From: Oligoflexales bacterium
GTDB lineage: Bacteria; Bdellovibrionota_B; Oligoflexia; Oligoflexales; RGVZ01
Assembly: GCA_044236265.1 (NCBI GenBank)
Contig: JBIIGV010000022.1
Location: 1-30,654 of the forward strand
Length of the DNA stretch: 30,654 bases
Direction of reading: 5' to 3'
In this document: piece after piece, positions 19,183 to 21,492 of the stretch
Position numbering within the stretch: position 1 is the stretch's first letter
Layout of the letters: each line of letters begins with the position of its first letter
The notes under the pieces: generated by a model
Seen by the model: only the letters and a program-made list of their open reading frames with translations
What the model was told of the DNA's origin: nothing
Database searches by the model: none
Program-made: the position numbers and the translations under genes

Positions 19183-19204
19183 TCTTTCGAAGGAATAGTT
19201 GATT

Positions 19205-19261
19205 AATTAGTGCCACCCGACTGATTCGCTAATAATTGGAATAAGTCGGGTGGCGCCGATT
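19205..19261. repeat. Inverted pair of 28-bp sites (copy D 19205-19232 minus, copy E 19234-19261 plus)
   Basis: GCCACCCGACT and AGTCGGGTGGC are perfect 11-bp inverted arms. 19232-19262 matches 21393-21423 at 28/31 positions. Confidence 0.9.
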
Positions 19262-19390
19262 TTTAATGTGCTTATCTTGAACAGCAGCAGTCGACTTTAC
19301 AATCAAACTTTCTTGCCAGATAATCAAGTGGCACAGAAAATTGGACGCGCATGGTCAGAGCTTTGCGCACATTTTGTACGGAGACATTGC

Positions 19391-20104
19391 ATGAAATATT
19401 TCTCGACCATGAGACTTTATATCATCTGTTTTGCTATGCATTCGTTATCATCCGTGACCTTCGGAGCTGACAATGTCGTTCATCATCCCGCGCCCAAGGA
19501 ACCAGTCTTTGTAAACACAGATTTGTACCCGAAGATTAAAGCAAAAGTAGCCGCGCCGCCCCAGGAAGGATCTGCCGCTCAAAAGCGAGACGAAGACCAA
19601 CTCTATGCATTTCAGAAGAAGAGGCTACAGGTTGATTGCGACGCGGCTAAATCTGAGGTTTTGGTCAGTCTGGCAAGTTTTTTTGGTGCAGCGGGAAGCC
19701 CGTTGAAGAAAGCTGATATTGATAGGTTGTCGCCATTTTTTGAACAGCTTCGCAATGACTCTGACTATTTTATCCAGCGTCTCAAAGTCGACTTTCCCCG
19801 CAAGCGCCCATTTCTATATCTCAAGGATTTAACCCCCTGCGTCCCGAAAGAGGTCACGGGCGCATACCCAAGTGGACACGCCACAATAGCTGCTGTGTAC
19901 GCGCGGGTTCTGACTGACTTGTTCCCTCAACATAAGACTTATTTTACACAGCGTGCTAACATTATAGCCGAACATCGTGTGCTTGCTGGAATGCACCACC
20001 CGTCTGACATAGAAGCCGGTGCAACTCTTGGGAGCTTAATTTATCAGGAATTCAAAAAGTCATCAAAATACCGTGAGACACTTGAGACTGCGAGAAAATC
20101 TTGA
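19391..20104 (+). CDS. Class A non-specific acid phosphatase (PAP2 superfamily)
   Basis: KVDFPRKRP, YPSGH and HRVLAGMHHPSD motifs. ATG at 19391 with AGGAG RBS and signal peptide. Confidence 0.92.
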   Translation: MKYFSTMRLYIICFAMHSLSSVTFGADNVVHHPAPKEPVFVNTDLYPKIKAKVAAPPQEGSAAQKRDEDQLYAFQKKRLQVDCDAAKSEVLVSLASFFGAAGSPLKKADIDRLSPFFEQLRNDSDYFIQRLKVDFPRKRPFLYLKDLTPCVPKEVTGAYPSGHATIAAVYARVLTDLFPQHKTYFTQRANIIAEHRVLAGMHHPSDIEAGATLGSLIYQEFKKSSKYRETLETARKS

Positions 20105-20153
20105 AACGACTTTAGGCCGCCTCCGTTAATTGTTGTTAAATGAACAAGTGCTT

Positions 20154-20181
20154 AATTGGTGCCAACAGGCTGATTTACACA
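20154..20181 (-). repeat. 28-bp site family, copy F
   Basis: Minus strand reads TGTGTAAATCA-GCCTGT-TGGCACCAATT. The right arm is identical to that of copy H. Confidence 0.75.
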
Positions 20182-20204
20182 TCATACTAAGGGGATTTGG
20201 AGTC

Positions 20205-21284
20205 ATGATGTCTATATTTATCCGCATTGTTTTGTCAGTACTTTTGGTCGGTTTGATCGCTTGTAAAACAGTTACAACTGAAAATAATTCTTCACTTCGC
20301 GATGTTGGGCTCATCGACTCAATGGCGGCCAAAAGTCTTGTTTTGTACGGCGATGGCAATCTAGTTTTGCTTAAAACCTGTAAGGAACTCTCGGTGTCCC
20401 CAGTGACGCGAGACTGTGTGTCGGATATTCCTCCTAGGTCAATGACTGCAAACGACTTTATCGCAAAGCTGCCTTTCGATGTTGGTTCGTATCCGCGAAA
20501 TGACGAAAGTATCACTGTCGTTGCAAATTTTCTTGAAACAGCAAAAACCGCCGCTCAGGCTGGTAACGAAAGTGCCAAAGCAACGGTGAAGAAGCTTGAG
20601 CAGATTGAAAAAAATCTAAAGATTATCAGATCGGTGCGTTTATCTCTGACGGATAAACAAAACTCGCTCACTTATTTTGAGTATCAAGACGAATTCCAGA
20701 AATTATTAGCACCTTTTGGCGTAAACCCTACAAAGCCTGCGTCAAATAACGGTGTGCCGGTTGCCAGTAACAGTGACGGTGGTATGTCTCCAAAACAGTG
20801 CTTTGAAATTCTGCGAAGAGAAATCAATAAGAATTGGTACGATCAGAGTTTGTGGCCCGTCTGTCTTAGCGGCGGAGATTTGGCTTGTGTGATTGATCGA
20901 TTCCGGAGAAATCCCTCCCTTTACCCTGAAGACTTGCCAGAGCTTTGTGGCGGGATCTATGATCTAAGCCGTCAGCCGGATTTCGACGTCAGTGACATGC
21001 CTAAACGTCCTGAAATTCAACCGGCAATTCAAACCCCGAATCCCTCCCGTCCCCCAGTTGTGGTTAATCAACCGCAACCCCCTTCCTCTGGTGGAAATAC
21101 CAGACCTTGCTTGGGTGCAAAAAATCACTGTTCGGTTAATTGGGAGTGTTGCTCAAACTCCTGCGGAATGGACGGCCTTTGCCAAGTCGGCGGCGGTGGC
21201 TGTGTCGGTAGAAAAGGTTTCTGTGGTGTGGACTGGCAATGCTGTTCAAAAATTTGTGATGATTTGACAGGTCTTTGTCACTGA
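20205..21284 (+). CDS. Lipoprotein with coiled coil, Pro-rich linker and two C-terminal knottin-like Cys repeats
   Basis: Lipobox LIAC and two copies of C-x6-C-x5-CC-x3-C-x5/6-C. Confidence 0.85.
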   Translation: MMSIFIRIVLSVLLVGLIACKTVTTENNSSLRDVGLIDSMAAKSLVLYGDGNLVLLKTCKELSVSPVTRDCVSDIPPRSMTANDFIAKLPFDVGSYPRNDESITVVANFLETAKTAAQAGNESAKATVKKLEQIEKNLKIIRSVRLSLTDKQNSLTYFEYQDEFQKLLAPFGVNPTKPASNNGVPVASNSDGGMSPKQCFEILRREINKNWYDQSLWPVCLSGGDLACVIDRFRRNPSLYPEDLPELCGGIYDLSRQPDFDVSDMPKRPEIQPAIQTPNPSRPPVVVNQPQPPSSGGNTRPCLGAKNHCSVNWECCSNSCGMDGLCQVGGGGCVGRKGFCGVDWQCCSKICDDLTGLCH

Positions 21285-21360
21285 GTCTTGTCCGGTATTT
21301 GGAAAATAAGACGTCTAAAGCGCAACAAATTACATCTGCTCGACCTATTGCAATTTTGAT

Positions 21361-21422
21361 AATTGAAATTAGTCGTCTGGCCCCAATGTCTGATAATTGG
21401 AATCAGTCGGGTGGCACCAATT
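21361..21422 (+). repeat. Tandem 28-bp sites (copy G 21361-21388, copy H 21395-21422; 34-bp period)
   Basis: AATTGAAATTA-GTCGTC-TGGCCCCAATG and AATTGGAATCA-GTCGGG-TGGCACCAATT. Confidence 0.85.
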
Positions 21423-21492
21423 TAATCGACTTATAGGGCGGGGCAGGGTAATCTCTTATGAAACCCAAGATTGCTAGCCTATAGGTGACTCC

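Follow-up and report, generated by a model that had tools for sequence, protein, structure and literature searches.

A cassette-like gene array at candidate TIRtron terminal repeats in an Oligoflexales genome

Results

An accessory-gene array punctuated by short repeats

The window analysed here is the whole of a 30,654-nucleotide contig (JBIIGV010000022.1, contig C207) from the draft genome of an Oligoflexales bacterium (GCA_044236265.1, here G000; 3.25 Mb, 234 contigs, 88.7% complete). Other G numbers denote related (freshwater) genomes, which are likewise drafts, while C indicates a contig and L a locus. The window contains an array of genes separated by short repeats, or sites (Table 1). 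Sites D to H read exactly as originally predicted, and two genes indeed lie between inversely oriented copies, the phosphatase gene between E and F and the Cys-rich gene between F and G. Of the three further copies that had been proposed between 383 and 1862, B and C are present; A proved to be a half-site cut by the end of an IS3-family element.

Table 1 Features of the window
Feature	Position	Strand	Remarks
Left end and orfA of IS3-family element, in site A	5..382	-	HTH_Tnp_1; fragment scoring below cut-off for NF033516 (IS3); GTG of the site comes directly after the IS end
Site A	383..394	+	Outer half of a TIR site left by the IS3 insertion
Sites B and C	1788..1862	B -, C +	Back-to-back doublet (B from 1788, C from 1835), GTTATG-TGTCCC subfamily; 8 bp after stop of HTH gene
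Accessory island holding the array	14830..27480 (edges approximate)		Flanking genes 230-290 bp apart in G001, G002 and G004
Lipoprotein-like gene	18526..19182	+	No family match; stop 23 bp before outer end of D
Sites D and E	19205..19261	D -, E +	Back-to-back doublet (D from 19205, E from 19234), GTCGGG-TGGCAC subfamily
PAP2/PhoC-like acid phosphatase gene	19391..20104	+	Accessory; PF01569
Site F	20154..20181	-	Degenerate single copy, 14.9 bits
Lipoprotein-like (Cys-rich) gene	20205..21284	+	Two C-terminal six-cysteine repeats; no Pfam match
Sites G and H	21361..21422	+	Tandem pair (G from 21361, H from 21395), 34-bp period; H is an insertion hot spot
Asparagine synthetase gene	21493..23163	+	In relatives, in other gene context without sites

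The phosphatase query had no match in any of the 12 genus genomes; of 129 other genomes in the class, 4 have a homologue, at 30-39% identity. Partial homologues of the Cys-rich gene, the product of which may be a knottin, occur in 3 of the 12 genus genomes. No sites flank the homologues of the phosphatase gene (5 loci) or of the Cys-rich gene (5 loci and G005:C142), and a metagenome scan with an asnB pattern returned 5 loci, all from other species and none with sites. The genome-wide site list places no site at the edges of the island. Near a site cluster in each case are two paralogous Cro/C1-type HTH genes of ~240 codons (1046-1780 and 17636-18349).

In four public runs, probably three data sets as X13 and X14 look like one, both bracketed genes are in place and the window genes keep their order and orientation; no movement of the window's own genes was seen in the runs examined. 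Run X2 carries an IS3 end inside site H. A different element is inserted in the same site, at 21413, in X13 and X14, and its 16-letter probe has no match in G000. A joint between 19229 and 21400 (X2 and X4) was considered as an excision product and rejected: its short side is 21 letters, 23 foreign letters lie between, and a loose end corresponds to sequence beside a site on contig C64, so that it derives from a doublet at another locus.

The sites are polar repeats dispersed through the genome

To define the site family we seeded a matrix on the five sites D-H, refined it in five rounds and used the reversed genome as control. At 18 bits or more, the scan of G000 gave 81 sites compared to 1 in the control, which is far beyond chance, and at 14 bits or more there were 90 matches over 39 contigs compared to 5. 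The sites had been described as 11-bp arms around a free 6-bp spacer, a layout that the matrix does not bear out. Most of the information lies in positions 12-28, and two of the best-conserved columns, G12 (1.87 bits) and T13 (1.60), fall inside the supposed spacer, while left-arm columns 4-6 are nearly free (0.15-0.22 bits). The 8/11 inverted match of the arms in H was confirmed, but it is near the top of the range (E 6/11, G 5/11, D and F 3/11), and arm complementarity averages 4.4/11 positions over the 81 sites. Given the conserved "spacer" and the weak complementarity, the site is polar and not 11-6-11. Comparisons of copies within each of seven genomes show a median of 15-24 bp in common inward of the core compared to 2-10 bp outward; thus, the outer edge is well defined. 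Each copy is a polar sequence of ~30-40 bp with a 17-bp conserved core and a sharp, AT-rich outer edge.

In pdif modules, single genes lie between inversely oriented short sites recombined by XerCD at dif-like sequences. The original prediction drew on this resemblance, and the 28-bp length, the inverted sites around single genes and the 8/11 arms of H are in keeping with it. Apart from the missing 11-6-11 symmetry, the right arm matches an XerD arm at only 2-6 of 11 positions, and, as described below, the sites bracket genes for Y1 HUH nucleases. The Xer/pdif model is refuted on site anatomy, and recombination of the sites by XerCD is scarcely credible. A search of G000 with an XerD-arm motif found no match for the organism's own dif, and this 88.7% complete draft yielded neither canonical xerC nor canonical xerD. 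One divergent tyrosine recombinase gene, which would fit an Xer system, lies on C69 (L002:1162-2082); it is the only one found, with a single, Xer-like PF00589 match far below all cut-offs.

Single copies do not fold (-2.1 kcal/mol for H by itself), and the consensus lacks GTAG. The DNA of the B/C and D/E doublets forms hairpins of -18.5 and -17.0 kcal/mol, respectively (raw folding values without a shuffle control). Genome-wide, the sites form 52 clusters, 22 of which contain a back-to-back pair. Clusters are located between convergent genes in 21 of 47 cases compared to 136 of 1110 background gaps, and between divergent genes in 4 of 47 compared to 382 of 1110. Many doublets are found at gene 3´ ends, also beside core genes, and 38 of the 81 sites lie within -5 to +31 bp of stop codons (a raw count without a control). 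The 16 inter-site intervals of 200-3500 bp comprise 10 inverted and 6 direct. The sites had been predicted to be absent from core-gene gaps, which does not hold: H is 70 bp before the asparagine synthetase gene (asnB), and others are beside apparent core genes, presumably valS, serS, dut, thiL and a glutaredoxin gene (named from N-termini).

The hairpins and 3´-end positions of the doublets would suit a family of operators or bidirectional terminators, and they make a secondary terminator role plausible. Such a regulatory element is unlikely as the primary role, indeed highly improbable, as divergent gaps are avoided, the sites bracket Y1 genes and they occupy different loci in each species. 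A terminator-like hairpin with the TIR core motif in its arms is present near position 2500 of G000:C109, where G008 has a site.

Of the family's 21 genomes, 8 contain the exact site pattern, compared to 1 control match overall, and a looser pattern adds G003 and G013. A wide pattern scan returned 66 stretches, many from records titled Oligoflexales or similar; being largely redundant, these are excluded from all counts. Viral contigs gave 0 matches. Comparison of three G000 arrays with the genus placed two in islands and revealed no exact empty allele. One array, on C123 (L259:2187-7900), contains nine sites among small accessory genes. It starts ~1.5 kb after a 380-bp stretch that is 84-97% conserved across the genus and is probably the tmRNA gene, and a small duplicated gene in it has N-terminal codons that overlap two of the sites.

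The sites match the terminal repeats of a TIRtron

The original prediction also pointed to HUH (Y1) nucleases, which proved to be the correct lead. The only PF01797 (Y1_Tnp) match in G000 is on contig C88, and this reading frame (P0001) ends inside a site: its 3´ terminal inverted repeat (TIR) is whole, while the inverted 5´ TIR is cut by an IS3 element. P0001 has 232 residues, compared to about 238 for TIRYTs, and carries the motifs NHVH, WQ, YIELNP and SS, the signature of subclass 2.1 as listed in Table 1 of Quentin et al. (2018; PMC6006769). That study equates TnpA-Y1 subclass 2.1 with the TIRYTs of TIRtrons, a class named in 2013 by Di Nocera, De Gregorio and Rocco (PMC3733652). Matrix matches were found at 9 of 12 Y1 loci of relatives, inverted on both sides at 7 of 12, and the Y1 genes of G003 and G013 carry the D/E/H core. 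G004, G005 and G008 have sites, and no Y1 gene was detected in these draft genomes.

The GGGGWSAS motif, read on the other strand, is exact in 28 of the 81 sites, including that of the TIRtron itself, and present with two mismatches or fewer in 62. Three site subfamilies coexist in G000. Window copies differ from the motif at 1-3 positions, and the D/E/H subfamily differs from that on G000's own TIRtron.

These data identify the sites, by sequence, as putative terminal repeats of a TIRtron, that is, a TIRYT gene between terminal inverted repeats. The likeness to published TIRtrons (PMC3733652, PMC6006769) covers a Y1 HUH gene enclosed by inverted repeats that contain a motif of the GGGGWSAS type, the overlap of one TIR with the 3´ end of the gene, and a moderately abundant repeat family found as singles, dimers and groups, here 52 clusters. 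By contrast, the D/E/F/H core is off GGGGWSAS, at 2-3 positions, and no C-terminal HTH was detected in P0001 with Pfam profiles (not those of the paper) at E values up to 0.001, although its tail is partly conserved among 6 relatives. The accessible parts of the TIRtron descriptions (PMC3733652, PMC6006769) mention no cargo, filled and empty alleles, adjacent deletions or IS targeting. Within the window, the Cys-rich gene is placed between F and G like a TIRYT gene between its TIRs.

An IS3-family element targets the sites

In G000, each of the five exact left ends of the IS3-family element directly adjoins a site's GTG (positions 17-19), in either orientation, and a sixth, variant left end adjoins a degenerate site. 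Among six right ends, three are at the GTG, two are within 10 bp of the inner edge and one is outside any site; overall, 8 of 12 ends are at the core GTG. One remnant retains a 3-bp duplication on both sides, and the two left ends observed in G001 likewise fall at this GTG. The insertions, in two species, are at window 5-394, on G000 contigs C2, C9, C16, C51, C67, C88 and C186, and at L069 and L243; they include the one in the 5´ TIR of G000's own TIRYT gene.

According to the accessible text of PMC1525189, the IS3-family elements IS1397, ISKpn1 and ISPsy8 target REP sequences. The element described here likewise enters a dispersed repeat at a fixed position, but its target is the TIRtron repeat and not REP. 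The concentration of IS ends at the GTG raises the question of whether the IS3 element, rather than the Y1 enzyme, causes the rearrangements described below. We consider this very improbable, as the element is present in only 2 of 21 genomes of the family while breakpoints occur also in G004, G005 and G006, and these are located at the outer edge of the site rather than at the GTG.

Gene content switches at the sites in related genomes

Comparison of related strains, which the original prediction proposed, revealed gene gain and loss breaking exactly at the sites. The clearest case consists of two single contigs. Contig C142 of G005 has the arrangement X-site-B, and C44 of G001 has X-site-insert-site-B, where the insert is a 386-codon AAA_14/DUF4143 gene with ~570 bp. 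The extra gene-plus-site unit is between direct copies, flank B is 94.5% alike and the switch falls inside the site. G001:C44 (L081; also L051 and L099) holds three divergent AAA_14/DUF4143 ATPase genes in tandem and an HTH gene, each ending at a site.

A reciprocal pair involves a giant gene. At birA-coaX, a single contig of G006 shows two genes separated by one site, while in G001 one contig runs from the left gene through a site into the 3´ end of the giant gene and a second runs from its 5´ end through a site into birA-coaX. At aspC the reverse is seen, the roles of G001 and G006 being exchanged. The giant-gene ends are 72-74% alike between the two genomes, and giant paralogues exist; each filled allele spans two contigs and would be joined across them. 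The giant gene is repetitive, encodes an Lcl_C domain at one end and has direct sites on either side, its loci in G001 differing from those in G006 (L083, L084, L111 and L192). In the gap before smpB, G004, G006 and G009 are empty and site-free, G005 has a 650-residue frame between two sites, and G001 has additional units.

Other differences start at the outer end of the repeat. Beside fabD, this end lies after the stop codon in G004, replaces it in G005 and cuts further into the gene in G001; each of the three has different DNA on the inward side of the site. The TIRtron of G001 and G006 is missing at the matching locus of G005, the contig of which is closer to G006 than to G001, and beside the TIRtron G006 is without the adjacent gene from the right TIR end onward. 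In G004, one site is found a second time together with 142 bp of the DNA inward of it.

Synteny with G000 is broken at 49 of 53 site-bearing gaps compared to 178 of 304 site-free gaps. In this test the loci had been selected for their sites and came from non-independent kin; the Y1 gene adjoins 6 of the 53 gaps, and at least one gap that is in fact conserved was counted as broken. In tandem gaps the breaks number 22 of 25 compared to 96 of 196; convergent gaps show no enrichment (21/22 compared to 38/45). Only 3 of 315 site-versus-genome comparisons were split over two sites, and one of these was a paralogous copy. Two measures were discarded. A TTA target motif at the outer edge (140 of 246, compared to 47 and 33 further out) was a biased test, as TT belongs to the site motif, and the coincidence of alignment ends with site ends (45 of 770) was set aside because alignments end at gene ends too.

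The sites might instead be passive, TIR doublets having spread like REPINs into tolerant gaps such as 3´ ends and islands, with genes arriving otherwise and with gain and loss reflecting host recombination or slippage between 20-40 bp direct repeats. Consistent with this are the back-to-back pairs and the bias to convergent gaps. G002 has doublets between genes that are adjacent and site-free in G000, a REPIN-like spread that is incompatible with restriction of the sites to accessory genes. In G001:C6 a conserved operon gene has sites on its flanks, the birA-coaX gap of G005 contains an insert of three genes and no site, and the edges of the island in the window are without sites. Such spread does not account for deletions and copied segments beginning at the outer end and joining unrelated DNA (fabD, the G006 deletion by the TIRtron and the 142-bp segment of G004), nor for the three AAA_14 genes of G001:C44, each ending at a site. 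We regard purely passive spread as a possibility, albeit a doubtful one. The predicted capture or shuffling of genes stands in part: synteny switches exactly at sites in relatives, but the window genes were unmoved in the reads and many gene-less doublets are beside conserved genes.

Discussion

This repeat family is characterized by a link between gene and site, a sharply bounded outer edge and alleles that diverge precisely at the sites. The reading we favour, and consider probably correct, is that the sites are dispersed TIRtron ends acted on in trans by a TIRYT, the window array being accumulated events in an island that was later hit by IS elements. The original prediction placed the recombinase outside the window, and a candidate, the TIRYT gene on C88, is indeed located there and would act on the sites. 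HUH enzymes cut single strands, form a 5´-phosphotyrosine link and resolve it by strand transfer (PMC8266576). A TIRYT acting in trans on single-stranded DNA would cut at or near the outer edge of the repeat, and the cut end would be transferred to another site or to nearby sequence. Transfer to nearby sequence would produce deletions outward from the site that halt at needed genes, while transfer between two direct copies would lead to gain or loss of a gene-plus-one-site unit. Repeated events may have left gene-less doublets as well as tandem and partial copies such as G/H, and the window array would be a pile of such events inside the accessory island, then struck by site-targeting IS elements. 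Against this mechanism, D, E and H are unlike the TIR of G000's own TIRYT, the 5´ TIR of which is broken, and loss between direct copies could be due to host recombination.

The REP/REPIN/RAYT (TnpA-REP) system (PMC8266576, PMC5581495) is similar in having a HUH Y1 enzyme that works in trans and doublets in intergenic DNA, and its single-strand cleavage and strand transfer are the likely chemistry here. It differs in that the single site described here has no GTAG-tagged hairpin, the enzyme is of another subclass and copies are fewer.

Integron cassette arrays carry accessory genes in direct repeat and yield A-site-B and A-site-gene-site-B alleles. The alleles and accessory-gene arrays described here are alike in this respect, but the sites take either orientation and are spread over dozens of loci, they do not fold as single copies, unlike attC hairpin sites, and the candidate enzyme is a HUH nuclease. 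An integron integrase was not found in the 88.7% complete G000, where the sole PF00589 match is the Xer-like one below all cut-offs.

A bolder reading, which we put forward tentatively, is that TIRYTs, a widespread class of HUH nucleases, are cassette recombinases that excise and integrate gene-plus-one-site units at dispersed repeats, building integron-like arrays at many loci without a tyrosine integrase, with the repeats serving as IS3 landing pads. The repeat class is known; what may be new, as the comparative data hint, is the cassette-like behaviour at its sites. Our literature search, which most subscription papers lay outside, found no report of cargo, allele swaps or IS targeting at TIRtron repeats and no paper on the motif GGGGWCAS. 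In their accessible parts, PMC3733652 and PMC6006769 name TIRYT but assign it no tested function, the former proposing TIRYT cleavage or binding of the TIR as future work. The alleles point to the site as the substrate, to the outer edge as the region where a cut is likely, and to an empty allele and a gene-plus-site circle as the expected products, which makes the role of TIRYT directly testable. If true, accessory genes would have a further means of exchange alongside integrons and pdif modules, and the system might serve as a compact insertion tool.

Subclass 2.1 Y1 proteins were reported in 14.9% of strains surveyed (PMC6006769). Three places in a 24-kb Pseudomonas aeruginosa plasmid record (NZ_CP116719.1) also match TIRYT.
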